The notes beneath the pieces are model-generated. The model saw nothing but the letters and a program-made list of their open reading frames with translations. It did not search any database and was not told where the DNA came from. Positions 46,400 to 63,651 of a stretch of 64,000 nt of DNA are shown here, piece after piece. Source of the stretch: an uncultured Acidobacteriota bacterium (GTDB lineage Bacteria; Actinomycetota; Acidimicrobiia; Spongiisociales; ZC4RG35); NCBI GenBank assembly GCA_963828465.1, contig CAWHEU010000026.1:43589-107588 (forward strand). Reading direction: 5' to 3'. The translations under genes and the position numbers were made by a program. Each line of letters begins with the position of its first letter. The first letter of the stretch is position 1.

Positions 46400-46856
46400 A
46401 GCAGTTCCTTTTCCTAGGGGTGCCTTCGGATGTGATGACCGCCTCGGAAGGTGCGAACGAGCGAACCTACGTCCAAGGATGGCGGAGTCGACAGTTCGCG
46501 AAAAGATTCTCAAACCCAGTTATGCACAAAGCCGGATACCAACGGAGCGATTGCGATAAAAAGCCCAGGTCAGATGGACTTTCCCCCTCCATCGCGATTT
46601 GCAAGGCGGGTCAAATCACAGTGGCGCTGGTGGGGGGAGAGGCGGACCTGTCCGCGTCGAGGCCCATGTCGGGCGTCAGGGCGAGGCCCTCCCTCTGATG
46701 GGTTGACCCTGCGTTTGTCGCTCGCATTGGCAACGTTACTTGCGACGACTTCAACGTGTCAGGCCCGCCCATACCACGGGACTAACCAGACCCCGAAGTG
46801 ACTTTGCAAGTTCATTTGACAACGAATGACCTAAAACGCCTGGTCAGAGAGTTTCG

Positions 46857-46897
46857 CGCTCCCGGCAGGATTCGAACCTGCGCACCCGGCTCCGGAG
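46857..46897 (-). repeat. att site: duplicated 3' half of tRNA-Arg(CCG)
   Basis: cgctcccggcaggattcgaacctgcgcacccggctccggag identical to 63533-63573; flanking tggtcagagagtt is also shared. Confidence 0.92.
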
Positions 46898-47041
46898 AGA
46901 GGTCACGGTCAGCCGCTATCAGAATCGGTAAAAGCCCTGGTCAGAGGGATTTCTGGTCGCTCTATGGTTTGATTCGACCGGGTGCGTTTGGTTTGGGGAT
47001 GGCTGGCCTCTCAAAGTGCGAGCTCTGAATCGAGAAGACTC

Positions 47042-47064
47042 ACACCTGGTTTAGGAAACCTGCT
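47042..47064 (-). repeat. Short remnant of the tRNA-Arg(CCT)-derived repeat
   Basis: acacctggtttaggaaacctgct matches acacccggtttaggaaacctgct in the long copies (22/23). Confidence 0.7.
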
Positions 47065-47076
47065 TGGTCGGATGGT

Positions 47077-47562
47077 CTAGTGGAGGTCGATTCGGATCTG
47101 GACGTTGTCTTGGGCTGCCTTGGCGATGTCGCCGGGGTTTGGGTGGCGGTTCTCGTCGAGCTTCACACGGAAGAAGCGGGCGTCTCCTGGGTTGTGCCGT
47201 AGGTAGACGTCCAAGCCTGCGGCGATCTCCTCGGTGTCGGTGCACACATCGGCGACCCCGGTCAAAGTCTGACCTTTCACCACGACGGTCACCGGAGCAC
47301 CACCGTGAAGATTCCGCCACCAGGAGAAGGGTGAGTAGCAGAACACTGTTTGTCCTTGCTGCATGTAGCCGACGGGGAAGTTGTAGGTCTGTCCTGTTTG
47401 TTTGCCCTTGAACTGGAGCATCATGAGCGTCTTGCTGCCGATCCCCCTGTTCAAGAACAGTCGCATGACGGGATTGATCGCCCAACGTGTGAGGAAATTG
47501 AATACTGGCCCGGCGAGCGTGCGCATCGAGGAGGTTGGTGTCGACTGGTTAGGTGAGGTCAT
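47077..47562 (-). CDS. Nitroreductase-like deazaflavin-dependent oxidoreductase (DUF385-like split barrel)
   Basis: INPVM, LQFKGKQTGQTYNFPVGY, WWRNL..GAPV pattern. Confidence 0.7.
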   Translation of the reverse strand: MTSPNQSTPTSSMRTLAGPVFNFLTRWAINPVMRLFLNRGIGSKTLMMLQFKGKQTGQTYNFPVGYMQQGQTVFCYSPFSWWRNLHGGAPVTVVVKGQTLTGVADVCTDTEEIAAGLDVYLRHNPGDARFFRVKLDENRHPNPGDIAKAAQDNVQIRIDLH

Positions 47563-47612
47563 TCGGCCTCCGGAGTGCAGTGCGTGGTACTCAGATTATA
47601 ACTAGATATACT

Positions 47613-48260
47613 ATGAGTATGTCAAGCTCAGCAGGTCGCCAGACACCGAAGCGGTCCTCACTCGGGTTGATGGTGCTCTGGCAGCTGATCGGTGAACCGA
47701 TGCACACCTATCGCATGCAGAAACTGATCGAGGCCCAGGGAAAGCACCGTGTGGTGAATGTGCGCTCACCGGCGAGCCTGTATCAGACGATCAAGCGCCT
47801 GGAACATCATGGGCTGATTGAGGTCAAGGAGACGATCCGCGGCAGCAGCCAACCCGACCGGACGGTGTACACCATCACCGAATCCGGTCGAGACACAGCA
47901 CGTGAATGGTTGCGAGAGATGCTGGTTGAAACCCGAGGCGACTATCCGGAGTTCATCGCTGCCGTATCGATCCTTTTCGTTATGTCGCCGGCAGAGGCAC
48001 GAGAACTGCTCGAGGAGCGGGCGGAGCGAGTGGCGGCCGATCTCGCCGAGGCTGAAGTCGAGCTCGCTGCCAATCCGGGGCTTCCCGGGCTGTTCCTCTT
48101 AGACGAGGAGTATCGGCGCGCCGTGCTACAAGCCGAGTTGTCGTGGCTGCGAGGCGTCTCCGCCCAGATACGAGGTGGCCGGCTCACTTGGGACGAGGAC
48201 TGGATCCGGGAAGTGGGCGCCAACTTCAATCCGACCAACGAAGATGAGGCCCGTCGGTAA
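47613..48260 (+). CDS. PadR family transcriptional regulator
   Basis: PMHTYRM, SLYQTIKRL, PDRTVYTITESGR; divergent from the DUF385 gene. Confidence 0.87.
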   Translation: MSMSSSAGRQTPKRSSLGLMVLWQLIGEPMHTYRMQKLIEAQGKHRVVNVRSPASLYQTIKRLEHHGLIEVKETIRGSSQPDRTVYTITESGRDTAREWLREMLVETRGDYPEFIAAVSILFVMSPAEARELLEERAERVAADLAEAEVELAANPGLPGLFLLDEEYRRAVLQAELSWLRGVSAQIRGGRLTWDEDWIREVGANFNPTNEDEARR

Positions 48261-48277
48261 AACGAAAACGAGAGAAT

Positions 48278-48414
48278 GCGCCCCCGGCTGGATTCGAACC
48301 TGCGACACCCGGTTTAAGAAACCTGCTCTGTATTAGGACCTCTGAACACCCGAAAACGCCAATAAACATAGGGTTTGCGCGCTCTCTAGGTTTGGCTCGT
48401 TCCGGTGCTCAGTT
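48278..48414 (-). repeat. tRNA-Arg-derived att-like repeat, long copy 1 (tRNA 3' half + ~90-bp conserved arm)
   Basis: ggattcgaacctgcgacacccggttta...aaacctgctctgtatt...cccgaaaacgccaat...ctctaggtttgg...ttccggtgctcagtt; about 15 differences from copy 2 by manual alignment. Confidence 0.9.
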
Positions 48415-49299
48415 CCTTTTGATCCTGAGTGGCCGTGGCGGTCCAGCCAAGGCGGCCCTTGGTGAAGTGCCGCGATGAGGATGGCGGGGATGATCGGGAC
48501 TGCCAGGAGGATGAGGAACTCGATGTCTTCTCCAACGGGCAGGAAGGCCTCATGGAACTGGCTCTGGGTGGTGGCGTTGTAGGAAGCATGAAAGAGCCCG
48601 ACGATGAGCAGGCTGCGATGGGTGTTGTTATAGAACCAGGCCACGATGACTCGGCTGGCCAGTTGAGGGATGAAGAGGACACCGAGGAGAACAAGGCCAT
48701 CGACCACAGATTCCGTTTCGACGATGAATCCGGGAATGTGGAACAGGGCGAACGGGACCGCGACGATGGCGGCGGCTCGGAGCGGCGTGAAGCGGCCTTG
48801 GAGTCTGTCGAAGAGGAACCCGGTCCACCCCACCTCTTCGGCAAAATTGGAGAGCAGGAAGGCAAAGGCCAGGCTCGGGAGGATGGAAGTGAAGAATCTC
48901 GGCCAGTTCTCCGCCACCGCGGATCGCCGGAGCTGTGCCGCCCGAGGCGATGGCGAGCACCAGGGTAAGGACTGTCGGTCCCAACGAGGCAAGCAGGTAC
49001 CAGCCGATCCCAACCCTCCAGCGCAGGCACCGTTGGACAAGGTCCCGTACCCCGCCTTTGCCGTGTACGGCCGAGGTGACGATGAAGGCCGGGACTGCGC
49101 TACCAAGGATGTGCGCGAGCAGGTCGTAGGGAGCGTGCCCATAGGGCAGCAGGTCTCGTCGGGTCAAGGCTGAGGACAGTGCGGCTGTCACGTTGACCGT
49201 GTAGACCATGATCAGGAACGCGGCGACAGGGTGGCGTCCAATCCACCGCCAAAGCGGCGAGTACCAGGCGGCGCTCGGTTGAAGGGCGTCTTGGGACAT
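48386..49299 (-). CDS. CPBP (CAAX/Abi) intramembrane metalloprotease, two frameshifts (~48935, ~48468)
   Basis: HPVAAFL...WRVGIGWY, EEVGWTG, FALFH, FHASYN; 3' end runs into the repeat arm. Confidence 0.8.
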
Positions 49300-49416
49300 C
49301 TCAGTCCTCACGCTTCAAGCGACCAGAGGTCGGACGCTACTCGCGCATAGGAGGAGCGGGTCCTTGCGAGCTGGCGGCCCTATCAACTTTTTCGCAAGAT
49401 CGGCCGATGGTCTTGC

Positions 49417-50766
49417 ATGTCTACCTGGCGCGCTAGCCGGTCGGCCCATCTCAATGGGGTATCGGCCACGGCCGATGCGCTGTCGCACGCGGCCTTATCG
49501 CCTCCGAAGGTCGAGGTCGGCGGTTGGCTGGAGAACTGGACGAACAGGGTCTCCGATCTGGCACGTCTCAGAGAGGCTCATCCCATGGTCGATGCGGTCA
49601 TTGACGAGGTCGATGTCAGGCGGATCCGGGTGGGAGACCAATGGCTTGCCGATTTTGCCTCATGCAACTACCTCGGGTTGGACTGGAACCCGGAGGTGAT
49701 CGAAGCAATACCTGGCTATTTACGTCGTTGGGGTACACACCCCAGTTGGTCTCGGCTGCTGGGGAGCCCGATCATCTACGAGGAGATCGAAGAGCGGCTG
49801 ACGAAGCTGTTGGCATGTGATGACGTCCTCCTCTTGCCGACGATCACCCACATCCACATGTCAGTGATCCCTCTATTGGCCGCCTCGGGAGTGGTCTTTC
49901 TCGATCAGCGGGCGCACAAGACCATCTTCGATGGATGCAGTGTCGCCCGGGGCAATGGAGCCACCATCCATCGCTTTCGACACAACGATTATGAGCACCT
50001 GGAACAGCTTTTGAAGTCAGACAAGCGTTCTCCGCGTGTCATAGCTACCGATGGTGTCAACTCGATGACCGGGAATGCGCCAGACACCCATGAACTGGCC
50101 CGCTTGGCCAGAGAGTACGACGCTTTGCTCTACATCGACGACGCCCACGGCTTTGGCATCGTCGGTCATCGGCATCCCAATGAGCTGAGCCATTACGGAA
50201 TGTCGGGTGACGGTCTGATCCGACATCAGGGTGAGAGCTACGACAACGTCGTGTTCGTTGCGGGGATGTCCAAGGCGTATTCATCGCTCCTTGCTTTCCT
50301 CGCTCTCCCCACCCCGCTCAAGAACCTGCTCAAAGTGGCGGCGCCGCCCTACCTTTTCTCAGGACCGTCGCCGATCGCAACCCTCGCCACGGCGGCGGTC
50401 GGGCTCGAGGTCAACGAACGGCAGGGCGACCAATTTCGCTATGAAATCTGGCGGAAGACCAGATCGATCCTCGATTGCCTCGATGACCTGGGCATCTATA
50501 CACCCAACACATCGGGGTTCCCCATCATCGAGATTCCACTGGCCCGTCATGAGGATATCGACGAGGTGGGCCGCTTTCTGTTTCACCAAGGTATCTATGT
50601 GACCCTCGCCGCATACCCGCTCGTTCCCAAACATGAGGTCGGGTTCAGGATCCAGGTCACCAGCGCCAACGATGACGACCAGATCGATCGGTTGTGCGAG
50701 GTCATCGTGGAGCTGGCCAGACGTTTTGCCTTTCAGGAACCAGACACGACCAGGCAAGTGAGCTGA
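49417..50766 (+). CDS. PLP-dependent alpha-oxoamine synthase (AONS/BioF/CqsA/SPT fold)
   Basis: FASCNYLGL, AHKTIFDG, FRHND, DGVNSMTG, DDAHGFG, GMSKAYS (PLP Lys), YLFSGP. Confidence 0.9.
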   Translation: MSTWRASRSAHLNGVSATADALSHAALSPPKVEVGGWLENWTNRVSDLARLREAHPMVDAVIDEVDVRRIRVGDQWLADFASCNYLGLDWNPEVIEAIPGYLRRWGTHPSWSRLLGSPIIYEEIEERLTKLLACDDVLLLPTITHIHMSVIPLLAASGVVFLDQRAHKTIFDGCSVARGNGATIHRFRHNDYEHLEQLLKSDKRSPRVIATDGVNSMTGNAPDTHELARLAREYDALLYIDDAHGFGIVGHRHPNELSHYGMSGDGLIRHQGESYDNVVFVAGMSKAYSSLLAFLALPTPLKNLLKVAAPPYLFSGPSPIATLATAAVGLEVNERQGDQFRYEIWRKTRSILDCLDDLGIYTPNTSGFPIIEIPLARHEDIDEVGRFLFHQGIYVTLAAYPLVPKHEVGFRIQVTSANDDDQIDRLCEVIVELARRFAFQEPDTTRQVS

Positions 50767-50769
50767 ATC

Positions 50770-52992
50770 ATGGCCACCGGCGAGCTAAGGAGACTTCTCG
50801 GCACACCGGAGCCCGTGTCGCTGAGCTTTGTCCGCTCCAGGGAGTCAGGGTGGAAGATCTACTTCCTGGTCGGCTCCGTGGTGCTGGCCGGATTCCTCGT
50901 GATTCCATCATTGCGGGTTGGGCCCTTGTTCAACGTGATCGCCCTATCCGGTGCGCTCGCCATCATCTTCACGCTCAGGCGGCACCGTCCTGAGCAACGC
51001 ATCCCCTGGCTTTTGGTTGCGGTAGGCCAAATCGTCTTCGTGGGTGGGGACATCATCACCTACAACTACGAGCGGTTCTTCGGTGGGGAGCCACCTTTCC
51101 CCTCGTTAGGAGACCTCTTCTATCTGACTGTGTATCCGTTCCTGGTGGCAGGGATTCTCCTGATGATTCGCCGCCGCAGCCCGGGTCGAGATCGGGCGAG
51201 CCTGATCGACTCACTGATCATCGGGTTCGGCGTAGGCACACTGTCGTGGGTCTTCCTCATCGCCCCATACCTCTATGACCCGACTCTGACTGTGTATCAG
51301 AAAGTGGTGGCCATGGCCTATCCAGTCATGGACCTGGTCCTCCTCACCGTCGCCGTCCGTCTCGGCATGGGGGCAGGCAAACGATCGGCTGGCTTCTACT
51401 TGATGATGGGCTCGATCGGAGTCCTATTCATCACCGATGTCATATACGGCTGGATCGTTCTGCACGGGGGCTACGACAACTCCACAGGATACCTGGAAGC
51501 GGGTTGGGGTTTGTTCTACCTCCTGCTGGGAGCGTCGGCTCTGCACCTGACAACACCGTTGATCGAGACCCCCGAGCCCGAGTACGAGCCAACTCAGCCG
51601 CGCCTCAGGGTCCTGCTTCTGGCGTGCGCCGCCTTGATGGCTCCAGCGGTGAACATTGTTCAGTCCTTGCGCGGGGAGGCCGTTGACGTCCCGATTGTCT
51701 CGGCAGCCGGGGCTCTGATGTTCATCTTTGTGCTGGTGCGCCTCAACGGTCTTATGGTGGACATAACCCAATATCGAAGGACCGCCCGGGCGCTCACCGA
51801 GGCCGAGGCGAAGTATCGATCACTGGTGGAAGGGCTGCCCGCCGTCGTGTATGTCGCCGACTTCGGCGAGCAGGGTGATTTCACCTACGTCAGCCCGCAG
51901 ATCGAGTCCGTGCTGGGTTTCAGGCCAGACGAGTTTCAGACAGCAGCGTTTTGGAAGGATCGCATCGTCCCAGAGGACAGGGCGCGTGCCGTAGACGCCG
52001 AACTGCGCCTGGCAGCTGGCAATAGCCGGCTCGAGGTCGAGTACCGGATCCTCGGAAAGGATGGCCGGGAGGTCTGGATACGAGAGGACGCTGATGCAGT
52101 CCGTGACGAAAATGGCATTCCCCTTTATCTGCAAGGGGTGATGTACGACGTCACCGAGCAGAAGACCATCGAACAGAAATTGGTCAAAGCCCTCGAGACC
52201 GAGAAAGAGACCAACCGAATTCGCTCCGAGTTCGTTCTGATGATCAACCACGAGCTTCGCACCCCACTCACGAGCGTCGTGTCCGGCGCCGAGGTGATTG
52301 CCGACCTCGATCTGCCCGAGGACGACCGACAGATGATCATCGCGGACATGCTGCGGGACGGTAGACGACTGGATGGGCTGATCTCCCAGATGTTGACGGT
52401 CGCCCGCATAGAGAACAGCGGACTCAACTTCAGCCTCACCAGGACGGAAGTGAGCAGTGTCCTCGGGCGTATCAGACAGACGGCCGACAGCCGGCTCTAC
52501 GCTCTGGACGACGCCTGGGCCGGCGACGCAGTGGTCAACACGGACCGCGACGCCCTTGTGCAGTTGCTCACTTCGCTCGCCGACAACGCCTTCACTCATG
52601 GGGCATCCAAGGTGGCGATCCAGGTCACCCCAACCCTCCGATTCAACCCTATGCACACTGTTGGGGTCCAACCACCCCAGACCTTGTTCTTCCTGGTCTT
52701 AGACAACGGACCTGGCATCGACCGGGAGTTCCTGCCTCGTGCCTTCGGGAAGTTCGAGAAGCACAGCAGGAGCTCAGGTACGGGACTCGGCCTCTATCTA
52801 GCGCGCCTCATGGTGGAGGCCATGCAAGGCGCCATCTCAGTCCACACCGGGCCCACCGGCACGATCATGGCGGTAGGGATCCCACTCGTGTCGGTCGACG
52901 GGCCTACCACGGATTCGGTTCCGGTCCTTGCGAGCAACGAGCACGATGCGACGGGTGCGTCTCCGCGACTGCCGCCGACATTGGCTGAATGA
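50770..52992 (+). CDS. Multi-TM (about 10 helices) PAS-domain sensor histidine kinase
   Basis: Membrane domain with PFPSLGDLFYL; PAS/PAC (YVSPQIE...EYRI...VWIRE...DVTEQK); H-box NHELRTPLT; DNA, DNGPGI, GTGLGL. Confidence 0.92.
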   Translation: MATGELRRLLGTPEPVSLSFVRSRESGWKIYFLVGSVVLAGFLVIPSLRVGPLFNVIALSGALAIIFTLRRHRPEQRIPWLLVAVGQIVFVGGDIITYNYERFFGGEPPFPSLGDLFYLTVYPFLVAGILLMIRRRSPGRDRASLIDSLIIGFGVGTLSWVFLIAPYLYDPTLTVYQKVVAMAYPVMDLVLLTVAVRLGMGAGKRSAGFYLMMGSIGVLFITDVIYGWIVLHGGYDNSTGYLEAGWGLFYLLLGASALHLTTPLIETPEPEYEPTQPRLRVLLLACAALMAPAVNIVQSLRGEAVDVPIVSAAGALMFIFVLVRLNGLMVDITQYRRTARALTEAEAKYRSLVEGLPAVVYVADFGEQGDFTYVSPQIESVLGFRPDEFQTAAFWKDRIVPEDRARAVDAELRLAAGNSRLEVEYRILGKDGREVWIREDADAVRDENGIPLYLQGVMYDVTEQKTIEQKLVKALETEKETNRIRSEFVLMINHELRTPLTSVVSGAEVIADLDLPEDDRQMIIADMLRDGRRLDGLISQMLTVARIENSGLNFSLTRTEVSSVLGRIRQTADSRLYALDDAWAGDAVVNTDRDALVQLLTSLADNAFTHGASKVAIQVTPTLRFNPMHTVGVQPPQTLFFLVLDNGPGIDREFLPRAFGKFEKHSRSSGTGLGLYLARLMVEAMQGAISVHTGPTGTIMAVGIPLVSVDGPTTDSVPVLASNEHDATGASPRLPPTLAE

Positions 52993-54278
52993 TGGAGCCG
53001 GTGGTGGGCAAACGATCCGGCGCCTTCAGGCTCTTTCGACCTCTACGAATTCGGGACTTCAAGTTGCTTTGGACCGGACTGGTCGTCTCGCTCATCGGGG
53101 ACGGCATGTTCTTGATCGCCCTGGCCTGGCAGGTCTACGAGCTTTCCAATTCCCCCAGCGCATTGGCAATCGTCGGGGTGTCGATGTCGGTATCCCACGT
53201 TCTGTTCCTGTTGGTCGGTGGTGTGATCACTGATCGACTGGATCGGAGGATCGTGATGATGGGCGCCGACGTGGTCCGCGGGACGGCGGTAGCAGCTCTG
53301 GGCATCCTTACATTGAGCGGGAACATCGAGCTCTGGCATATCGTCGCTCTGGCGGCTGTCTACGGGGCCGGCAATGCCTTTTTCGGCCCGGCATTCGATG
53401 CGATCGTCCCAGACGTGGTCCCCCCTGATCAGCTGACACAGGCGAACGCCATGGACCAGCTCGTCCGGCCCGCCGCGTGGCATATGGCCGGGCCGGCCAT
53501 TGGGGGAGTCGTTGTAGGGGTGCTGGGTGCGGGGGCTGCCTTCCTCATCGATGCCGGCACGTTCGCCGTCTCCATCTGGGCACTGTCTTTGATCAAGTCG
53601 AGACCCAGCCAACAATCTGAAGTGAGGGACGGATCGCTGTTCGGGGAGGTCGCTGAGGGTTTCAGATACGTGCGACAGCGGGTTTGGCTATGGGGCACAT
53701 TCCTCGCGGCGACCGTTGCCTACCTCGTCTTCCTCGGCCCGATCGAAGTGCTCTTGCCTTTTGTCGTCAGAAACGAAATGGGTGGTTCGGCCACGGACCT
53801 CGGATTCGTCCTTGCGGTGGGAGGCGTGGGCGCCATCGGAGTTGCGATGCTCATCGGTGCACGAGGGATTCCGCGCAAGAACATGACGTTCATCTACATC
53901 ACGTGGACGATCTCGACGTTGGCTGTAGCCGGTTACGGTCTGGCCAATGTTCCGTGGCAGGCCATGATCGCCGCGTTCATCTTCGGCTCGTTCGAAGCGG
54001 CTGGTCTGATTGCATGGATCACGACGAAGCACCGGTTAGTTCCCCGTCACCTACTTGGGCGAGTGTCCAGCTTGGACTGGTTCATCTCAGTCGGTCTCCT
54101 GCCTGTCTCATATGCAATGACGGTCCCAGTCGTGGAATTCCTAGGTCCCAGATCGACCTTGATTGGTGCCGGGGTCCTGGGGGCAGCCGCCACCCTCGCA
54201 TTCCTCTTCCTTCCTGGCATGCGTGATCCTGAGGAGCTCCAAGAAGTTGGCACTGAGGTCGAATTGACCATTGCTTGA
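52989..54278 (+). CDS. MFS exporter (DHA3, Tet(V)-like)
   Basis: GGVITDRLDRR, LGPIEVLLPF, LLGRVSSLD; ATGA overlap with the kinase stop. Confidence 0.88.
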   Translation: MMEPVVGKRSGAFRLFRPLRIRDFKLLWTGLVVSLIGDGMFLIALAWQVYELSNSPSALAIVGVSMSVSHVLFLLVGGVITDRLDRRIVMMGADVVRGTAVAALGILTLSGNIELWHIVALAAVYGAGNAFFGPAFDAIVPDVVPPDQLTQANAMDQLVRPAAWHMAGPAIGGVVVGVLGAGAAFLIDAGTFAVSIWALSLIKSRPSQQSEVRDGSLFGEVAEGFRYVRQRVWLWGTFLAATVAYLVFLGPIEVLLPFVVRNEMGGSATDLGFVLAVGGVGAIGVAMLIGARGIPRKNMTFIYITWTISTLAVAGYGLANVPWQAMIAAFIFGSFEAAGLIAWITTKHRLVPRHLLGRVSSLDWFISVGLLPVSYAMTVPVVEFLGPRSTLIGAGVLGAAATLAFLFLPGMRDPEELQEVGTEVELTIA

Positions 54279-54342
54279 CCAAGGAAACTACCGCGATCAG
54301 CGGCCTGCTGAGAAGTCAATGAAACAAGGGGAAGTGACGATC

Positions 54343-54480
54343 GGCGCCCTCGGCAGGATTCGAACCTGCGACACCCGGTTTAGGAAACCTGCTCTGTATT
54401 CGGGTCTCAGACACCCGAAAACGCCAATGAACATGGGGTTTTCGCGTTCTCTAGGTTTGGCGCGTTCCGGTGCTCAGTTT
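54343..54480 (-). repeat. tRNA-Arg(CCT)-derived att-like repeat, long copy 2
   Basis: Reverse complement ends GGTTTCCTAAACCGGGTGTCGCAGGTTCGAATCCTGCCGAGGGCGCC (anticodon loop TT-CCT-AA, T-arm, acceptor 3' strand). Confidence 0.92.
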
Positions 54481-55149
54481 TGGACGGGAACGTAGTTCTG
54501 CCGCCCACGCGGCGGGGCTCGCTTTGTCGTTCGACCGTGCTCAGCTGTCCGGTTGCACCGCGATGGCGGGGCGAAATGCAGGGGTGTCGCCGAGAGCTAC
54601 GAGGAGGGTTAGGAGAAGATGGCCAGGTCGAACTTGTTCCTCGGCAGGCACCGGAGTGGTTCCAAGGCGGCCGCTTGACGTGTCGAGAAGCGTGGCCAGG
54701 GCGTCTTCGGCGAGTTCCTTTCCGATCGCGGAGAGATGCTACTCAGGAGGAGCAGTTGCCGGGATCGGGGCATGTCGAGCCGTTTGATGAGACCGGCCTT
54801 TCGGCAGGAATCGGTCATGCCACCCAGGTTAAGCAGGATGCGTCTCGGCCGCTCTGACGTCCCGCTGATGAGGCGGTCTCGATACCGGTCACGTGGATCT
54901 GAATCAGAGACGCCAATGACGCAGGGGATGGCGATCGACCAGCACTGAGCCATCGAGGTTCCGGTCCGGCACACGTAGCTTCGCCGGAGCGATGGCTTGC
55001 TTCGAGATTGGTGAATCGGCCACCGGGCACGATGGTTCGTGACACAGTGGCCGATCGTAGTGCTCAGTCCTCGAGTGAAGCGACGAACTCGGGAACGAAT
55101 TGTTCCCAGAGCGCCATGGGCTCCGCTCTCCAGAGGGGGGGCCGATCGA

Positions 55150-55847
55150 ACGTGGCTGCATAGTCGGCTCAGGGTGATTCTCGAGCACCCAGTTTCCGAA
55201 TGGCGTAATGACCTCTCTCAACCCCTAGGTGAATGCCCTGTCTCTCGATAATGACCACGTCTCGATCCCGTCGGACCCGAATGTAATACGAACCGGTTGA
55301 CGGGGGCGGAAGGTGCGACCCCGAGGGCGCGGCTCAGGTCATTCTGCCCGAGTACGGGCAATGAACCACACACGGCTCCACCTCGACGCAGGTATCGGAC
55401 TCGTAGGTCGGACCGAGGATCCGCTCGAACTCGATCCGAGCCGGTAGTTCACCCAGGTTGGTCTCGTCCCAGTCGCTCTCCGACCACCACATCATCGGCG
55501 AGCAATGACAGCACGGTGTCGACGTCGTGTTAATTCGTGGCGACCATGTACGCCTCGGCGATGCCGACCGGGCCGGCCACCGGGGCTGGATTCCGGTTCG
55601 CTAGGGCGAATGCGGCGACCGCGACCACCACCATTACTCCGGCCAGCGCGAGGCCAGGTGCGAATCGTCGTCGGTTTGAGCCCTCCCGCTTGGGCTCGAT
55701 CGTCTTCACTTCACTCATAGCACTGCTCCTCTCGGATTCGTCTCTGAGGGCACCGATGTCCACCGGGTCGATCGGGTCGAGCAAGTCCAATGACGGCACC
55801 GGGTTGGCCCGAGCGAACAGGACTGCGACTTGGTCTTCGATGGTCAT
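55150..55847 (-). pseudogene. Decayed anti-sigma-like membrane protein with SnoaL/NTF2-like domain
   Basis: FARANPVP...TM...AEAYMVATN*HDVDTVLSLLADDVVV (in-frame TAA at 55530); later fragment FGNWVLENHPE; 3' end approximate. Confidence 0.6.
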
Positions 55848-55860
55848 GATCCACCTCCTT

Positions 55861-56388
55861 TCAGAGCAGCGGGGGGAAGTTGTCCTTGGTCAGTTTCAGG
55901 TACTCATTTGCGAGGTTGCGACGGGCGCGAAAGGCCCGTTGTTTCACCGTGCCCGGCTCTAGCCCGAGCACGATGGCGGCATCGGCGTGCGACAACTCCT
56001 CCCACAAGGTGAGCCGTAGGATCTCCTGGTCGATCGGTCTGAGTCGGGCAGCGGCTTTGATCACTGTCTGACTTTCGCTGCGACGGACCAATACGAGGTC
56101 GGGTGTCGGGGGTTCCACCTCTGCCAGACCTTGAAGCTTTTCGAGTAGACGCCGGCTGCGGGCGCTACGCCTCCATTGGTGGGACAGGACCCGAAAGGCC
56201 ACCCCATATAGCCAGGGCAGCGCTGCTTCTCCATCTGGCACCTGGTCGATTTTGCGCCAGGCCACGAGGAATGTCTCGGCGACCGCGTCGGCAGCCTGAG
56301 ATCCCGGACTTCGTCGAGCGCAGTAGGCGTGGACTTTCCTGCCGTATCGACCGTAGAGCTCGGTGAATTTCAGTTCCTCGTCCGACAT
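55861..56388 (-). CDS. ECF RNA polymerase sigma factor
   Basis: DAVAETFLVAWRK, PWLYGVA, EELSHADAA, GTVKQRAFRARRNL. Confidence 0.9.
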   Translation of the reverse strand: MSDEELKFTELYGRYGRKVHAYCARRSPGSQAADAVAETFLVAWRKIDQVPDGEAALPWLYGVAFRVLSHQWRRSARSRRLLEKLQGLAEVEPPTPDLVLVRRSESQTVIKAAARLRPIDQEILRLTLWEELSHADAAIVLGLEPGTVKQRAFRARRNLANEYLKLTKDNFPPLL

Positions 56389-56793
56389 GGAATGCTCGGC
56401 TCGGTTTCCGACCTTCATCACAAACCTCTACGCCCGCCTGATCCGCCCAGGTCACCCTTTTTCTTGGGTGACAATTGGCATCTGCCGGGCATGTAACGCT
56501 GAGAGCAATCGGGGGGTTGCGCCGAGGGTCCCACGTCCCGGGCGTGGGACCAACGGTCAGCCGTTTCGGAGGCTACGTACCTTCGACACCACGTACACAG
56601 CCACCACGTCGGTTGAATAGGTGGGCGGAAACGGCCAACGCGGAGAACCCCCGACCGGCCTGATCTTGCGGTGATTCGAAGCTCCGGGTTGGAGCCCTCG
56701 AATACATCCATGTCGACATCTATTAGCTCAGCAAGCTCGACGATGCATCGCCTCTCGGACCGGATCGGTGACAGTTATGGGGAACCCGTAGTC

Positions 56794-56932
56794 GGCGCTC
56801 TCGGCAGGATTCGAACCTGCGACACCCGGTTTAGGAAACCTGCTCTGTATTTGGGTCTTAGGATGCCCGAAAACGCCAATGAAGATCGGGTTTTCGCGTT
56901 CTCTAGGGTCGGCGCGTTCCGGTGCTCAGTTT
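56794..56932 (-). repeat. tRNA-Arg(CCT)-derived att-like repeat, long copy 3
   Basis: About 10 differences from copy 2 over ~138 bp by manual alignment; same orientation. Confidence 0.92.
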
Positions 56933-57050
56933 GACCCAGCTGAGGATCAGGTCGCAGTCTCAGCTAAGTGGGTGTGGGTTACTGACAGGAACGTCGCTTG
57001 ATGCTGGAGGAGCCGCGGAAGAGTCCCACCACCGTGACGTTGCGGGAATA

Positions 57051-57194
57051 TCAGGTGAAGACGCTAACGCCGCCCGGTCCGACTAACAGACCCACCACGA
57101 TCAACACGATTCCCCATAACATTTGACCGCGGAAGATGGCTGCGATCCCTGCGATCACCAGGATGACCACGATAATCCAAAGGATTGTTGCCAT
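57051..57194 (-). CDS. GPGG-motif small membrane protein (47 aa, absent from the ORF track)
   Basis: Manual translation MATILWIIVVILVIAGIAAIFRGQMLWGIVLIVVGLLVGPGGVSVFT*; GGAGG RBS upstream. Confidence 0.88.
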   Translation of the reverse strand: MATILWIIVVILVIAGIAAIFRGQMLWGIVLIVVGLLVGPGGVSVFT

Positions 57195-57476
57195 TGGTTC
57201 GTCCTCCCAGACTTGAAGTGACAATCACGTACCCGGCACGTTGGGTCAACAAACAGCGATCTCACCACTCGCGACACGCCAGCAAATCCGTACGACTGAG
57301 AGACAAACGGACGGAGCCCCTTGGGATGCCCACCCCCACCCCAAGGAACTCCGTCGTGTGGAACCGAGCCAATAGCGGACATGGACTCCTGTTCAGGTAC
57401 TCATTTTCCCGAATACCAGGCCACGCGAACAAGAGCGCGAAATTTTCTCCGACCGTGGGCTCTGAAATTTGGGCCG

Positions 57477-58331
57477 TCAGGTTCCGGGGTGTTCCTCGCG
57501 ATCAGCCGCCGGTCGGTACGACAGACGGCCCCGGGTGATGACCGCGATGAGTATGGCGGCGATGATGATGACGCCGTTGAGTATCAGGAATCGATCCTCG
57601 GCGGTGGCCGGGATGAACTCTTGCGTGAAGGGTCCGTTGGTGGTGTTGAACGCCGCATGGAACAGACCGACCAGGAACAGGCTGCGGTTTGTGTTGTTGT
57701 AGAGCCATGCCACCAACACTCGGCTGCCTAGTTGGGGGATGGCGAGGAGGCCGAACACCAAAAGGGTTTCCTGGGTCGAACCGGTCTCCTCATAGAAACC
57801 CGGCAAATGAAACAGGGCGAATGGGATCCAGACCAACAGGCAGGCTTTGAGCGGGCCGTAGCGATCTTGCTGCCTGTCGAAGAGAAACCCGGTCCATCCG
57901 ATCTCCTCGGCCAGGTTGGAAAACAGGGCAAAGAGCAGGTACGGCAAGACCAATGTGAACAGGGACGGCCAATTGTCCTCCAACGCCTCCAGTGGAGCGG
58001 TGCCCAATAGGGCGGTGGCGGCCAGAACTGCTGCGACCGGTACGAAAAAGATTGCAAAGAAATACCAGCGGACCCCCACCCGCCACCGGAGGGTTCGGCG
58101 GGCTAGGTCCCGCACGCCGTCCCGACCATGGACGGCTGCCACCACCAGGAAAGCAGGGAGAGCCGACCCAAGGTAATGGCCCAACAAGTCGTAGGGGGCG
58201 AAATCGAACGGCAGTAGGTCTCGTCGGGTCAGAATCGACGGCAACGTCACTGCAATATTGACCCCGTAGACCATGACCAGGAACGCCGCCACGGGATGGC
58301 GGACCACCAAACGGCGGATAGAACCGCTCAT
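57477..58331 (-). CDS. CPBP (CAAX/Abi) intramembrane metalloprotease, intact paralog
   Basis: EEIGWTG, FALFH, FHAAFN motifs. Confidence 0.88.
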   Translation of the reverse strand: MSGSIRRLVVRHPVAAFLVMVYGVNIAVTLPSILTRRDLLPFDFAPYDLLGHYLGSALPAFLVVAAVHGRDGVRDLARRTLRWRVGVRWYFFAIFFVPVAAVLAATALLGTAPLEALEDNWPSLFTLVLPYLLFALFSNLAEEIGWTGFLFDRQQDRYGPLKACLLVWIPFALFHLPGFYEETGSTQETLLVFGLLAIPQLGSRVLVAWLYNNTNRSLFLVGLFHAAFNTTNGPFTQEFIPATAEDRFLILNGVIIIAAILIAVITRGRLSYRPAADREEHPGT

Positions 58332-58494
58332 GGCTGGCTCCGGAGCCAAAGCTCCGTTGAGACGGGCTGGATGGTTCGACCAAGGACCAGAATGGGACCG
58401 GAGACCACCGCCCTCTGGTCCACCTGTTTTCGAAGCACCGCGGCCAGTGCCATCGAGATCGACAGCACGGCGACGCAGCTCACCGAGGCGAGTG

Positions 58495-59709
58495 TCATGA
58501 CGGCGTCTCCCGCAGCCACAGCGACAGCGATTCGGGCTGCATGGCGGCGCTGGCCGTGTGAATCAGATCACGGCCTAGGTCTTCGATCTCCGGGTCGGAC
58601 CGGAGCCTGACGGCGAATGCGTCTACCACTTGGACGGCGTCGTAGTGCCTTCGGTTGAATCGGCGATCCACCGAGGTCTGAATTCGACGACGGAGGGGGT
58701 TGAAAAGCGCCGCTACCGCCAAGGTCGAGCCGGCCACGGCCAACCCACCTTGGCCCGGGACGAGTCTCCTCAACACGAAGACAGCCCCGACGTAAGCGAC
58801 GACAAGCACGGCCGTGACTAATCCATACCCGATGGTGCGAGAGATGATGCGGTCGATGGCGTAGAGCCGGTAACGGAGGATGGCGACCGCGATCGTGATT
58901 GGGATGAAGGTCAACAGCAGCCCGAAGGGGAGGACCGAACCACCGAGGAGGTCATCGTGTCCCAAGACGGACACCCACATGACCTCCCCCACCAGAGTCC
59001 AGGCCAACATCAAACCGACCGCGAAGCTGAACCATTTGAGCTGGAGTCGCTCCACTCCTTGCGATCTCCGGAACCGCACCGTCATGGAGGCAACGGCGCC
59101 GACAAACGCAGCCAGGATGATCCAACTTGGCATCTCATAGAGGACGCTCCCGTTTTCATCTATTAATCCTTCGACTCCCAGTGGGTTCTCGGTTGAGGGG
59201 ATCTCACCGAGGATCGTGGCCTCGTAGCGCTCCTGAAAGGCTGATGCCAAGACCAAACCGAGGACCGCTACCACACCCAACATCGCCACCCACCGCCAGC
59301 GTCTGGTCGGCGGACGTCCATCGGGGAAGAGGAGCGGCAGGAAGACAAAGACCCCACCGACCACCGGCCACCAAAACCAGTTGGAAAACCACACGAGCCA
59401 GGCCAGGAGGTCACTGGCCACAGCTTCGGACTGGGTGACGGCCAAGACATACTCGTTTGCCGTTCCTCCGAGGAGGGCTAACACCCCTATTCCGGCCAGC
59501 AACCAAGCGAGGCGGTGGCCGGGACGCCTGTAGAGAAGCAGGGCCCCCACCAGCCCGAAGGCGGCGATGCCGAGCCCGATTGCCCGCTGGCCAAGGAGAT
59601 CAGACTCGCCTCGGGAGAGCTGCATCCAATCGGTATAGATCGATGCGGCCACCACCAGGATTAGGACACCAACCGCTGCCAGAGTCGAGATCCAGCTTCT
59701 TCGTGCCGT
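58495..59709 (-). CDS. Polytopic membrane protein resembling the sensor part of actinobacterial histidine kinases, no kinase domain
   Basis: LLFPDGR...RWR, ERLQLKWF, AILRYRLYAID, FNPLRRRIQ..VDRRF, LWLR; frame extends to ACG 59709, 8 nt after AGGAG. Confidence 0.8.
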   Translation of the reverse strand, partial: TARRSWISTLAAVGVLILVVAASIYTDWMQLSRGESDLLGQRAIGLGIAAFGLVGALLLYRRPGHRLAWLLAGIGVLALLGGTANEYVLAVTQSEAVASDLLAWLVWFSNWFWWPVVGGVFVFLPLLFPDGRPPTRRWRWVAMLGVVAVLGLVLASAFQERYEATILGEIPSTENPLGVEGLIDENGSVLYEMPSWIILAAFVGAVASMTVRFRRSQGVERLQLKWFSFAVGLMLAWTLVGEVMWVSVLGHDDLLGGSVLPFGLLLTFIPITIAVAILRYRLYAIDRIISRTIGYGLVTAVLVVAYVGAVFVLRRLVPGQGGLAVAGSTLAVAALFNPLRRRIQTSVDRRFNRRHYDAVQVVDAFAVRLRSDPEIEDLGRDLIHTASAAMQPESLSLWLRETPS

Positions 59710-59768
59710 TGTTGTTTCTCCTGTCGAGCGTTATCTAACCGATGGTCGCTCCGAAATCGTTACGAGAT
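59683..59768 (-). repeat. ~85-bp duplicated leader (candidate ECF promoter + RBS), copy A
   Basis: Matches 61579-61660; minus strand CGTAAC-N17-CGGTT...GGAGAAAC. Confidence 0.8.
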
Positions 59769-60335
59769 GCTCACTTGCCCTCGCCCGAGCCGCGACGCCT
59801 AGTCGCATCAGGGACAGGGCGAAGAGGCCCAGCCCGAGGTAGAACCCGAATCCAGCGAAGAAGAACAGCTCGCCAAAGGGGAAAAGGTTCGTAGCGGCAT
59901 CCAGTCCTAAGCCCAGGGGCAGACTCACCGCGAACACGACCGCGGCCCACCGAGGCCCCGTTCGGGCCCGCCACACGGCCGCGCCCACAGCGCCGCGCCG
60001 GCGAGGAAGACGTATCCCGCCACCACCAAAGGGAAATAGAGCCAGGCTGGCTCCAGGCCCAGGGTGGCTGTAACGGCGATGCCGATGACCATAAGGGACA
60101 GCAGGGCCCCGGCACCCGTTGCGAGGACGAGCGCACCGACCGTGCCCAGGCGCCCATCGCGAGGCCGCCAGGCGGCGTGGAGCTCTCGGGTGGCCAGGAT
60201 CAGCAGCGCCGCAGCCGGTGCCAGGGCCAGCCATAGGCCGGCCCAGGCCATCGGGCCGATCAGGGCCACGACCACCAGTCCTCCGGCCGCGAGGGCGGCG
60301 ATCCCGCCTCTTTGAGCGTTCTGGTTCATCGCCAT
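59731..60335 (-). CDS. Hypothetical membrane protein, frameshift near 59987
   Basis: MAMNQNAQRGG...FLAGAAL continues in another frame as GAAVWRARTGPRWAA...; hydrophobic throughout. Confidence 0.62.
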
Positions 60336-60340
60336 CCTTC

Positions 60341-61591
60341 TCATGCCCCCGGGACTGGCACTTCCAGAGGGTCGCTCCACCGGCTCGTCGGTTCGTCGAA
60401 GACCGCGCCCAGGACCCGATTCGCCAGTTGGACCCCCGACTCCAGGGTGAGCAGCCGCGTGTTGACGAGCATCGCCACCGTCAGGTCGTCCTCCGGGAAG
60501 TCGGCCAGCACGCTGACGAATCCGTTGACCACTCCGCCATGGGACAGGGCGGGGTGTGCCCCGAACTCGCGGATCTGGAGCCCCAGCCCATACGGCACCC
60601 TGGTGCCGTCGGCCAGCACCGTGGGCTCGGACATCTCGCGATATGAGACCGGGTCCAGGAACAACCGGAGCAGCCCGGGCCACCGGGCCAGGTCCGCCGC
60701 CGTCGAACAAAGCCCTCCTGCCGACGACACCATCTCCATGTTGATGGGGGCAGGGTCGACTAACGCCGGGGGCCGACCGAGGCGGAGGGCCCGAGGCCAG
60801 TTGCCATACTGCAGGTCGTATCCATGAGCCCATCGATCGTCGCGTAGCTGCACATCGGGGCAGAACGAGGTCTGGTCGAGTCCGAGCGGCCGGAGGATCT
60901 CGTCCGTCACGTAGTCGGAGTAGGTGGACCCGGTGACCTGCTCGATCACCACCCCGGCGAGCATGTACCCGACGTTGCTATAGGAATGCCCCGTCCCCGG
61001 CTCGAAGTCGAGCGGCTGCAAAGCGACCAGGTCTATGACCTGGTCCCGGGTGTATCCCACGCCACCGACCTCCTCGAGGATGGGGAAAACCGCCACATCA
61101 GACAGACCCGAGGTGTGCGACAGGAGGTTGCGGATCGTGATCCGCCGGCCAGAGGCCGGGTAGTCGGGCAGGTAATCGCTGATCCGATCTTCGAGCGAGA
61201 GTTTCCCCTCCTCGGCAAGGTGGAGGATCGCGGCCGCCGTGAACTGCTTGGTGATTGAGGCCAGCCGGTAGATGGTGTTCGCGGAGGCCGGGACCTCGTC
61301 GGCCAGGTCCGCATACCCGTAGCCCTTGGCCAGCACCGGTTGGCCGCGGTCGACGACAGCGACGGAGAATCCGGCGGCGAGGATCTCGCGCTGGACGGCG
61401 GCGGCTGCTGCGTCCATCCGGGCCCCGAGTGCGGCGTTGGCGTCGACTGCAGTGGTGGAGATCTCGTCTCGGCCTGTCGCGACGCAGCCCGAGAGGACCA
61501 GAACGAGGATCAGGGAGAACCGCCACCTGCAGGGTCGCAAGGGTTCAGCCGCGGTCGCTGATCGCCTCGTCGTGTTCAAGTCGAGGTCCAA
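60341..61591 (-). CDS. Serine hydrolase, beta-lactamase class C/peptidase S12 family, probable lipoprotein
   Basis: SITK, YSN, HGG motifs; LLSHTSG; lipobox LSGC. Confidence 0.88.
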   Translation of the reverse strand: MDLDLNTTRRSATAAEPLRPCRWRFSLILVLVLSGCVATGRDEISTTAVDANAALGARMDAAAAAVQREILAAGFSVAVVDRGQPVLAKGYGYADLADEVPASANTIYRLASITKQFTAAAILHLAEEGKLSLEDRISDYLPDYPASGRRITIRNLLSHTSGLSDVAVFPILEEVGGVGYTRDQVIDLVALQPLDFEPGTGHSYSNVGYMLAGVVIEQVTGSTYSDYVTDEILRPLGLDQTSFCPDVQLRDDRWAHGYDLQYGNWPRALRLGRPPALVDPAPINMEMVSSAGGLCSTAADLARWPGLLRLFLDPVSYREMSEPTVLADGTRVPYGLGLQIREFGAHPALSHGGVVNGFVSVLADFPEDDLTVAMLVNTRLLTLESGVQLANRVLGAVFDEPTSRWSDPLEVPVPGA

Positions 61592-61660
61592 GTTGTGCCG
61601 TTACAGTTTCTCCCGTCGAGTGTTATCTAACCGACGGCCGCTCCGAGATCGTTACGAGAT
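61579..61660 (-). repeat. ~85-bp duplicated leader, copy B
   Basis: gtttctcccgtcgagtgttatctaaccgacggccgctccgagatcgttacgagat vs gtttctcctgtcgagcgttatctaaccgatggtcgctccgaaatcgttacgagat. Confidence 0.8.
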
Positions 61661-61848
61661 TGCACCGTTGAGGCAGTCTCACAACATCTGCCTAGTAGAC
61701 CTCCTCGGCCGGAGGCACGGTCTGCTCCGCCGACTCCGGGCGATTCGAGCTCCTTGCCTGAGGCCCCACACCCGCCAGTATCTCTGACGCCGTGAGCGTT
61801 CCGGGCATGGGCTGAACGGCTCAAACACCGCGGGCGTGGCCGCTCGCT

Positions 61849-62199
61849 ATGGTCGACAGGACGACGACCCGGACCGGAGGACGAGCGGTGCAGCTGGCGG
61901 TCTTCGGCAATCAAAGGGCAACCCTGCCACCGGACTGGACCAGGGAAACCGCCGTTTCGATCCTGGGCGACGTCCGCCTCGACGCGTCTGCCGGCGCCGG
62001 ACCGGACGCAAAGCTCACCTTCATCGGGATCTTCGGGGATCTGATGGTTACGGTCCCCGCCGCCAGCAAGGTGCGGACGAGCGGGTTCAACATCTTCGGT
62101 GACCCTCGCGTCGAGGTTTCCCAAGGAGGGGGACCGGAAGTCAGCGTCCAGAGCTACAGCCTATTCGGCGACGTGACGATCACCGACCGATCGGTTTGA
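61849..62199 (+). CDS. LiaF/DUF2154-like beta-solenoid domain protein
   Basis: Repeated [IL]FGD/ILGD motifs: SILGDVRLD, GIFGDLMVTVP, SLFGDVTI. Confidence 0.6.
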   Translation: MVDRTTTRTGGRAVQLAVFGNQRATLPPDWTRETAVSILGDVRLDASAGAGPDAKLTFIGIFGDLMVTVPAASKVRTSGFNIFGDPRVEVSQGGGPEVSVQSYSLFGDVTITDRSV

Positions 62200-62283
62200 C
62201 CGCGTTACAACGGTTACCAGCCACATCGTCGGCTCCTACCGACGGCGGCACACGTTCAGAACCAGCTGGGATGAAGAGGTGAC

Positions 62284-62532: not shown

Positions 62533-62588
62533 TTGAGCATGGGCGCCAATCACCCCGAACGCTTTCCGATCTGCATCGGTAGACCGGG

Positions 62589-63532: not shown

Positions 63533-63604
<72 letters not shown>

Positions 63605-63651
63605 CCGAGGGCGACGATTCTATCGACGGCTCTGCCTCTACCCTCCGCCTC

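Follow-up and report, generated by a model that had tools for sequence, protein, structure and literature searches.

The window analysed here, a stretch of 64,000 nucleotides, belongs to a 3.07-Mb genome of 92% completeness (hereafter G000; window = G000:C26:43589-107588), and its contig ends at window position 64000. Close to this end lies an intact tRNA-Arg(CCG) gene (63533-63604, minus strand; predicted by ARAGORN, 67.9 bits with the Rfam tRNA model), which anchors an array of small, integrase-free gene islets separated by 138-bp repeats. Each repeat joins the 3' part of a different tRNA gene, tRNA-Arg(CCT), to a conserved arm of 88 nt, and we regard these units as putative attachment (att) sites. 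Three co-oriented copies, B1 (48278-48414), B2 (54343-54479) and B3 (56794-56931), were recovered by repeat search and blastn, all of them on the 3' side of the intact tRNA gene and in its orientation. CCG-type direct repeats enclose the whole 16.7 kb of the window from 46856 to 63533.

The 138-bp unit and the islets it borders

A preliminary description of this DNA had named the three co-oriented copies and a 23-bp remnant at 47042, all of which our searches recovered, and had put the identity of the copies at 89-93%. Pairwise blastn comparisons (E-values of 1e-40 to 1e-53) gave 90.5% for copies 1 and 2 and 92.8% for copies 2 and 3, in line with this range, and 85.4% for copies 1 and 3, for which the estimate was slightly high. 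The unit is composed of the 3' 55 nt of tRNA-Arg(CCT), with homology extending from the 3' side of the D-stem to the 3' end of the tRNA, and of the 88-nt arm. As proposed earlier, the tRNA part derives from tRNA-Arg(CCT), bearing CTT in the first copy, and not from the resident CCG gene: it is 96% identical over 55 nt to the genuine tRNA-Arg(CCT) of the genome (G000:C25:106033-106107; blastn) and closer to it than to tRNA-Arg(CCG). A 20-nt T-arm match to the CCG gene, noted before, is indeed present, but the same 20 nt are identical in both tRNA-Arg genes, so that the match says nothing about a hybrid origin. Acceptor-stem variants in B1 and B3 were likewise considered as CCT/CCG hybrids; their flanks do not fit a simple crossover and we treated them as point changes.

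To define the unit, we aligned 41 unique full copies from G000, related genomes and metagenome contigs (including copy L016 of the unpublished genome G027). The conserved block begins with an abrupt 5' edge common to the copies (AAACTGAGCACC...) and ends at the 3' end of the tRNA. Mean pairwise identity reaches 96% in the tRNA-derived core and 83% in the 88-nt arm, and is about 29% in the 40-nt flanks on either side. In the anticodon stem, every type-1 copy has CAGG in place of the CCGG of the tRNA; the copies therefore share one ancestral att site and did not arise by copying the resident gene time and again. A second arm type, whose opening bases are identical to those of type 1, occurs in the arrays of two relatives (G005 and G025). 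Within the arm, one to three direct GAGnnCnnGAA motifs were found in 39 of the 41 copies; judged by their sequence, these may be the arm-type binding sites that would be expected of an att site. The two short inverted repeats reported before (TTCGGGT/ACCCGAA and GAAAAC/GTTTTC) are present as well. Beyond the 3' end of the tRNA, a motif at a distance of about 25 nt is common to 9 of the 41 copies, and a second motif to a smaller subset. Folding of the consensus yielded only short helices on either strand (-20.1 and -10.0 kcal/mol), with no compensatory double change at any pair.

At its outer boundary, the array ends in a 3' half of tRNA-Arg(CCG) (46856-46900) together with about 24 nt of downstream flank (46832-46900 in total, minus strand). 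This direct repeat of the intact 63533-63604 tRNA gene, which had been missed in the preliminary description, matches the real gene and its flank with 96.5% identity over 57 nt (blastn). A second CCG-type remnant of T-arm and flank, degenerate and located approximately at 46929-46990 on the minus strand (repeat family D12 and an alignment read by eye), is probably an older att scar. The adjacent 23-nt remnant of a CCT-type anticodon arm (47042-47064, minus strand; repeat family D5) has a better preserved counterpart in the related genome G026, which retains the full 88-nt arm at the equivalent position (G026:C9:71301-71410).

The four islets of the window follow from here towards the tRNA gene. 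Islet 1 (47065-48277), which is 94.5% identical to G026:C9:70045-71257, encodes a protein of 149-161 amino acids (47077-47562, minus strand) and a PadR regulator (47553-48260, plus strand). It is followed by B1, which comprises the tRNA-Arg(CCT)-like 3' part with the anticodon loop CTT (48278-48327) and the 88-nt arm (48328-48414), both on the minus strand. Islet 2 (48415-54342) contains a CPBP/Rce1-like protease (48333-49142, minus strand), a class I/II aminotransferase (49417-50766), a PAS histidine kinase (50770-52992) and an MFS transporter (52989-54278). The 3' end of this CPBP gene extends into the arm of B1. On the other side of B2 (54343-54479, minus strand), which has a downstream (P'-side) motif at about 54303-54342 and a weak match to the tRNA covariance model (54352-54414; 24.3 bits, under the 29-bit cut-off), islet 3 (54480-56793) carries an ECF sigma factor (55861-56421, minus strand), an open reading frame (ORF) of 105 amino acids (55530-55847, minus strand) and small ORFs. 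Islet 4 (56932-63525) lies between B3 (56794-56931, minus strand) and the tRNA gene, and comprises a second CPBP protease (57477-58349, minus strand), a 386-amino-acid membrane protein (58495-59655, minus strand), a 139-amino-acid ORF (59925-60344), a serine hydrolase of the beta-lactamase family (60341-61591, minus strand) and small ORFs. The two CPBP/Rce1-like membrane proteases (48333-49142 and 57477-58349), although located in different islets, are paralogous and share a 133-nt stretch of 71% identity.

Most of the cargo had been named correctly in the preliminary description, namely PadR, both CPBP proteins, the class I/II aminotransferase, the PAS histidine kinase, the MFS transporter, the ECF sigma factor and the serine hydrolase. 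For the protein of islet 1, called DUF385-type, the match to F420H2_quin_red is weak and falls under the Pfam cut-off, and the ORFs called 'anti-sigma' and 'GPGG' have no family match; the former, the 105-amino-acid ORF directly 3' of the sigma factor gene, is a possible anti-sigma factor. Just past tRNA-Arg(CCG), the N-terminal domain of a threonine synthase begins (window 62878-64000). The long ORF at 62878-63816 overlaps the tRNA gene, and its part upstream of about 63650 is probably spurious. About 400 nt separate the tRNA from the end of the contig, and arrays at contig ends are frequent.

Arrays across the genome and the genus

Elsewhere in G000, whole-genome blastn detected copies of the unit only on contig C25, where they lie 3' of the genuine tRNA-Arg(CCT) and in its orientation; there is no copy outside the two tRNA-Arg arrays. 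This second array consists of four full copies, one 100-nt copy and a 44-nt remnant 21 kb out (C25:127101-127144). Its cargo includes SRPBCC, alpha/beta hydrolase, LapA-domain, MarR, cupin and GAF-cyclase genes and an ABC transporter with GntR, among others, but no integrase, so that the cognate enzyme sought at the real CCT locus is missing there too; the cargo of the CCT array is not that of the CCG array. Genes face both directions relative to the unit, and the islets encode regulators of their own (PadR, MarR, ECF sigma and histidine kinase). A Pfam scan of 39 cargo ORFs from both arrays detected no primase, helicase or capsid family. A third tRNA-Arg type is represented in the arrays by a perfect 40-nt 3' fragment of tRNA-Arg(ACG), which lies inverted within the first interval of the CCT array (G000:C25:108593-108632; L001 10594-10633).

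Around tRNA-Arg(CCT), a protein with NYN and OST-HTH/LOTUS domains is a conserved divergent neighbour throughout the genus (L001 6821-7828; G000:C25:104820-105827). A multi-pass membrane protein of 500-860 amino acids is encoded just upstream of the tRNA in five of eight CCT loci (L038 2570-4684; L048 2776-5349; L042 11053-12540) and is absent at the CCT locus of G000; its C-terminal domain, hydrolase-like with a GXSXG motif (AHSQG), is conserved, and the protein matches no family of Pfam or NCBIfam. None of the conserved neighbours of tRNA-CCT (the NYN-LOTUS protein, an FAD oxidoreductase and the membrane hydrolase-like protein) is a recombinase.

Of the 30 other genomes of the genus, at least 13 contain full arm-bearing copies; a sample of 30 genomes from further genera of the family and order contributed none of the matches listed. 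All genomes are metagenome-assembled, and arrays often end contigs. Our genus tallies take in the unpublished genomes G018, G027 and G028, and the distribution tally also G039 and G050. Record titles within the genus mostly read 'uncultured Acidobacteriota bacterium', with two 'Acidimicrobiia bacterium'; six WhiB genes in G000 support an assignment to Actinomycetota, and by this token the Acidobacteriota label looks wrong. Scanning for the arm pattern returned 16 stretches in genome contigs, all from arrays of relatives, seven in metagenome contigs and none in viral contigs, and in phage and plasmid collections the tRNA part alone was matched, without any arm. In 11 array regions of eight genomes, all 58 att-like matches are co-oriented within their region, and wherever a tRNA gene is present they match its orientation. 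The 47 intervals in these regions are between 131 bp and 18 kb long (median 2.3 kb) and contain 0-14 genes (median 2), and arrays reach up to six units.

Comparison of relatives revealed that cargo order and content vary, which refutes the idea of an invariant arrangement, and that islets are shuffled between loci. A GAF-cyclase islet adjoins the tRNA in G012_C15 and G019_C15 and forms the sixth interval in G000_C25, and a single-gene hydrolase islet is bounded by copies in G000 and G012 alike. The same islets occur in the arrays of G005 and G025, where they are arranged differently; one is 98.8% identical between the two genomes over 1610 bp. Exchange between tRNA-Arg loci, as suggested in the preliminary description, is supported by cargo of the CCG locus in the window that relatives carry at their CCT locus: the beta-lactamase-family segment (window 59780-61578) matches CCT-anchored arrays of G019 and G003 at 90.4% identity, and the CPBP segment those of G029 and G012 at 86-88%. 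In G000 this CPBP gene abuts an arm; in G029 it opens an islet, and in G012 it stands in place of the arm, next to a copy that is armless.

The CCG locus itself is polymorphic for insertions. In G026, only 835 bp separate tRNA-CCG from the PadR islet, compared to 15.3 kb with three islets in the window; the tRNA is followed there by one extra gene, the PadR and DUF385-type genes, and then by the arm remnant and a CCG remnant. New material enters between the tRNA and older islets. The arm remnant is common to the CCG loci of G026 and the window, and probably also of G029 and G006, and hence a CCT-type site has long been present at this locus. To locate the points of exchange, we compared four informative pairs of copies from different genomes, against a background arm identity of 0.825. 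Arm identity was 0.82-1.0 in the three pairs with only the upstream islet in common and 0.75 in the one pair with only the downstream islet in common, while the core was identical in all four. The arm therefore follows the islet on its own side and the points of exchange lie within the core.

In the array of G029:C17:126000-177280 (L035-L037), a block with a protein of about 2820 amino acids and flank-like genes occurs in two copies, and the anchoring tRNA is off the contig. The tRNA-CCG of this genome is on a separate contig, and the array may be a strain mixture (5% contamination).

The design is not special to tRNA-Arg. In G000, 9 of 49 tRNAs have 3' fragments nearby. Outside the window, two islets without an integrase, 2.0 and 6.4 kb long, follow tRNA-Asn(GTT) (G000:C22:421226-429981). 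Both terminate in a perfect 46-nt 3' fragment of tRNA-Asn and in an arm, at least 125 nt long and 92% identical between the two, that contains internal direct repeats. Three other genomes (G009, G022 and G383) carry an integrase 419 nt downstream of tRNA-Asn; the contig of G009 ends before the far att site. As the tRNA-Asn islets possess an arm and fragment of their own, arm plus fragment appears as the typical far end of integrative elements in this group, of which the tRNA-Arg arrays are the extreme case in unit number and spread.

Recombinases and the origin of the arrays

Which enzyme could have moved islets that encode none? Two PF00589 matches were found in G000, both of the Xer class (XerC- and XerD-like by NCBIfam); with integron-integrase models they reach 62-105 bits, the cut-offs being 265 and 435 bits. 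No PF00239 match exists in G000, and this family is absent from 28 of the 31 genus genomes and from all arrays. Likewise, none of the arrays that could be placed in the 31 genomes has a PF00589 match, the nearest on array contigs being 16 kb (Xer class, G001) and 47 kb (tRNA-Thr islet, G003) away. A local integrase hidden Markov model (HMM), built from 14 integrase domains and recovering 14 of 14 controls, gave no match in the 11 array regions. The same searches do find integrases in classical islands at tRNA-Thr, Met, Phe, Asn and Ser of the genus genomes; of the control loci fetched, 12 of 12 had stop-free catalytic domains and four had tRNA direct repeats of 40-65 nt. The Xer-class pair are the only site-specific recombinases found in all 31 genomes. 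Across the 47 intervals there is no intact recombinase and one remnant, a decayed antisense integrase identified by protein search in the first islet of G025 (G025:C5), 45-80 nt from the 3' end of the tRNA; an unpublished integrase (L087, from G027) was one of the four query proteins. An intact integrase was found in G210, a genome from another genus of the same family, at a distance of 460 nt downstream of tRNA-Arg(CCT); the contig ends before the far att site, and the spacer between tRNA and integrase shows no similarity to array flanks. Neither this integrase nor the G025 remnant could be tied to the 88-nt arm. When arms were compared with integrase 3' ends plus spacer, type 1 gave no significant similarity (z ~0) and type 2 a weak one (z 2.2). 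Two metagenome contigs that overlap each other (L068 957-1178 and L071 74-295) encode a 74-amino-acid fragment resembling the C-terminal part of tyrosine recombinases (35 bits with the local HMM); an arm-bearing copy lies about 1.2 kb from it.

One candidate enzyme was rejected. On metagenome contig L069 (7637-9110), a xis gene and a frameshifted integrase abut a complete tRNA-Arg(CCT), and an arm-bearing copy lies 2.4 kb downstream, an arrangement for which we considered the integrase as an IntI-like platform enzyme of the 3' arrays. Its orthologues (65-87% identity, in two families; survey including the unpublished genomes G027, G039 and G279) abut the tRNA in 9 of 10 loci, and a perfect 42-nt 5' tRNA fragment lies 6.3-18.3 kb upstream in all five long contigs. 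The xis-int elements of this kind (L069, L092-L100, L104 and L121-L130) thus have the 5' half of the tRNA as their target and restore the gene where their integrase lies; they account for the upstream side of the CCT locus and not for the 3' arrays. In G005, a relic of such an integrase end lies upstream of the tRNA (z = 33), and the closest paralogues are placed likewise at tRNA-Arg(TCT).

We suggest that the units are attR-type junctions and that the array is an accretion of integrase-less islets, resembling cis-mobilizable elements (CIMEs), that would be moved by a helper in trans, by homologous recombination or by both, a reading to which we give about an even chance. The core of about 55 nt (tRNA-Arg(CCT) positions ~21-76) would be the stretch common to attP and attB, in which a tyrosine integrase would cut and rejoin, and the 88-nt arm would be the P arm, a property of the islet on the arm side. 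Fresh islets would insert beside the tRNA and displace older ones outward, with scars decaying distally. A transient helper element with the same tRNA core as its target may provide the tyrosine integrase in trans, and recombination within the near-invariant core, either site-specific or RecA-mediated, could excise and swap islets and move them among CCT, CCG and ACG loci. Anatomy, anchoring, co-orientation, conservation, shuffling, insertion polymorphism and the lack of local integrases are observed directly; the identity of the enzyme, its action in trans and a present-day activity are points that we infer. Both the CCG and the CCT array start at an intact tRNA and are closed on the far side by a direct repeat of its 3' part in the same orientation, as in integrative elements or genomic islands that target tRNA genes by a tyrosine integrase. 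The 55-nt match to tRNA-Arg(CCT) likewise agrees with the identity segment of such elements, which spans about 40-60 nt from the anticodon region to the 3' end, but the integrase gene that they carry is not present in intact form in the arrays. The islets have att sites, predicted as such from sequence, on both sides and no recombination or transfer genes inside, as in CIMEs; the proposal of att-type sites at the borders of integrase-free modules is supported.

Several observations weigh against this accretion of helper-moved islets. No integrase is linked to this arm anywhere, with no viral contig and none of the seven metagenome contigs carrying an integrase-linked attP, and the recombinases of G000 (92% complete) are XerC- and XerD-like only. 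For circles or empty sites there is no evidence. The integrase remnant in G025 means that some islets once had their own enzyme, which favours decay, and since tRNA fragments occur at 9 of 49 tRNAs of G000 without an integrase, a general loss of integrases is plausible. The CCG array does not fit simple insertion: B2 and B3 retain CCT-type acceptor ends and the intact tRNA its own. An invariant core of 50 nt would be equally usable by RecA. All data stem from metagenome-assembled genomes, in which arrays often lie at contig ends. Public reads from eight soil runs (at most 25% of sampled words each; the four runs examined gave short assembled contigs of low depth) contained three joints: a cross-match between copy and tRNA with a 25-nt side, a 44-nt skip inside a copy, and a 'goes back' joint on a single contig, with a 40-nt side and the foreign tRNA-like end also present on that contig. 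These joints are uninformative, being usable neither for nor against circles or deletions.

The preliminary description had proposed serial capture of integrase-free cassettes, which is one of two live readings, the other being integrase loss combined with homologous recombination. Following the latter, each islet came as a classical integrative element with its own integrase; this selfish module was later deleted while useful cargo and the att scar were kept, and RecA reshuffles the fossil scars between strains and loci by using the 50-140-bp repeats as portable homology, so that an enzyme acting in trans would no longer be required. We take this as a tentative but realistic possibility. The decayed antisense integrase beside the tRNA 3' end in G025, the integrase-bearing element at the same tRNA in G210 and the fragments at 9 of 49 tRNAs of G000, which has no non-Xer integrase, all agree with it, as do remnants that accumulate distally (window 46856-47064; C25:127101-127144), some rearrangements of cargo that end away from the repeats (the CPBP gene in G000, G029 and G012) and a long, near-invariant core that could serve as RecA substrate. 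However, one remnant and no intact integrase in 47 intervals contrast with the intact integrases at other tRNAs, and a single sharp outer edge in 41 of 41 arms is unexpected from independent deletions. Of the 10 loci in which the tRNA-proximal and supposedly youngest islet can be seen, 9 have no integrase in it, and the 98.8%-identical islet repositioned between G005 and G025 indicates a recent move in arrays neither of which has an intact integrase. True gene capture, in turn, would mean that integrase-less cassettes of 1-14 genes, each with a 138-bp site of which the 88-nt arm binds protein, are inserted, excised and exchanged at tRNA-Arg genes by a trans-acting integrase. Such a system would parallel integrons in function, with an origin in tRNA-targeting attP sites and with lineage-specific arm types that co-evolved with their enzymes; we consider this form of capture conceivable but doubtful.

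A resident platform, in which XerC/XerD or an unrecognised host recombinase would use the tRNA as primary site and the 138-bp units as cassette sites, so that the arrays would be a genuine functional counterpart of integrons or of Xer-dependent dif modules, appears improbable. The Xer-class pair is indeed shared by all 31 genomes, arrays without dedicated integrases occur genus-wide, and the layout of cargo plus one site recalls integrons, but no dif-like inverted pair of Xer half-sites was identified (a formal dif search was not run), all units are direct repeats as opposed to the alternating orientation of dif modules, the conserved neighbours of tRNA-CCT are not recombinases, and the consensus folds into short helices only, without compensatory changes. 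It is very unlikely that the units have another job (terminator, insulator, tRNA-like processing signal or small RNA) or represent a mobile miniature repeat, for which their place at islet borders would be secondary. Their conservation far beyond that of the flanks, the weak tRNA-model match of B2 (24.3 bits) and the short conserved helices would be compatible with such a role; the copies are, however, confined to two tRNA-Arg arrays and always in tRNA orientation, by which the small dispersed element of the preliminary description also falls, no Rfam family in the window reaches the threshold except the real tRNA, no pair shows a double compensatory change and cargo genes face both ways relative to the unit. 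As to strains mis-joined during assembly or binning, arrays do lie at contig ends (the window; G003:C10, which is bounded by copies; G029:C17 and C8) and signs of strain mixture exist in G012 and G029, with two CCT loci in one and duplicated blocks in the other. Nevertheless, the same architecture recurs in at least 14 separate assemblies and seven independent metagenome contigs, some arrays are internal to contigs of 140-212 kb, and the copies differ from each other by 7-15%, which leaves an artefact with a practically negligible probability.

The hosts are abundant uncultured soil Actinomycetota with small genomes of about 3 Mb, in which the arrays appear to be a main place for storage and exchange of strain-specific regulators, hydrolases, transporters and membrane proteases. 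If the islets indeed move in trans, the arrays would constitute a second, independently evolved route to integron-like modular gene capture, and their 138-bp site, being portable, could be used to follow gene flow in metagenomes. Should the units be scars only, the arrays would still document cleanly how serial integration, decay and homologous reshuffling succeed one another in nature at a tRNA hotspot, and the tRNA-fragment-plus-arm signature would be a marker for islands without integrases.

Comparison with known systems

Full-text literature searches yielded no description of these arrays; supplements, such as those with tycheposon and ssrA att-site details, were outside their scope. Integrons combine intI with attC hairpins that are conserved in structure, and their cassettes mostly hold single, promoterless, co-oriented ORFs. 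The arrays resemble them in that each unit is cargo plus one recombination site, in their variable order and in one preferred entry point. Of four defining features tested, variation of cassette order and content is the one present. In contrast to integrons, there is no IntI-type gene in or beside the arrays, the units are tRNA copies conserved in sequence (83-96%) rather than attC-like folds, and the intervals carry 0-14 genes on both strands with their own regulators, anchored by a functional tRNA. The term 'integron-like' used in the preliminary description holds for the layout, but the arrays are not integrons. The dif/pdif modules differ as well, having 28-bp XerC/XerD sites in alternating orientation, compared to 138-bp direct repeats in one orientation here (a formal search with the dif consensus was not run).

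Among streptococci, CIMEs, which occur with integrative and conjugative elements and integrative and mobilizable elements, are att-flanked cargo without integrase or transfer genes, lie in tandem at a tRNA or other att locus and probably move together with, or through, a helper element that uses the same site. The arrays described here differ in that no helper with this att site was found, in reaching six units and in their genus-wide occurrence, and they are known from sequence alone. Marine additive flexible genomic islands are similar to our arrays in being strain-variable stacks of small cassettes beside a tRNA gene.

The core has a direct counterpart in the actinophage RP3, whose annotated 54-bp attP core (X80661.1) is the 3' part of a tRNA-Arg(CCT)-type gene, 86% identical to the core of our units and of the same extent; actinobacterial integrases hence use exactly this tRNA segment. 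Outside the core, RP3 and the units have no similarity. On the arm side of the core, the RP3 integrase gene ends at a distance of about 50 nt, whereas a non-coding 88-nt arm and unrelated cargo are found at this position here. Tycheposon islands of Prochlorococcus also lie beside tRNA genes, with partial tRNAs between and within them and newcomers pushing older elements inward, and according to the sections of the preprint considered here most of their content lacks an integrase and active elements are rare (bioRxiv 10.1101/2020.12.28.424599). Tycheposons, as characterised in these sections, are nevertheless defined by their own tyrosine recombinase and a replication module, neither of which was found in the G000 arrays, and the same sections report no long conserved arm beside the fragments (bioRxiv 10.1101/2020.12.28.424599).

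The closest described case, as far as the consulted portions of the respective paper go, is that of the tandem ssrA islands of Dehalococcoides, which are arranged downstream of one small-RNA gene in numbers that vary by strain (PMC3146451, McMurdie et al. 2011). These portions state that 15 of 31 islands have no integration module and are proposed to be cis-mobilizable and moved by accretion, and that the other 16 keep a serine-recombinase module (PMC3146451). The islets here are much smaller (median 2.3 kb) than the islands described there, and 0 of 47 intervals have an intact recombinase. The anchor in that account is a tmRNA; here it is tRNA-Arg, with the same type of site at more than one tRNA-Arg locus. 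Both kinds of unit end, by the same account, in a direct repeat of the 3' end of the anchoring gene next to a conserved motif, which measures 15 bp in Dehalococcoides and is represented by the 88-nt arm in our arrays (PMC3146451).

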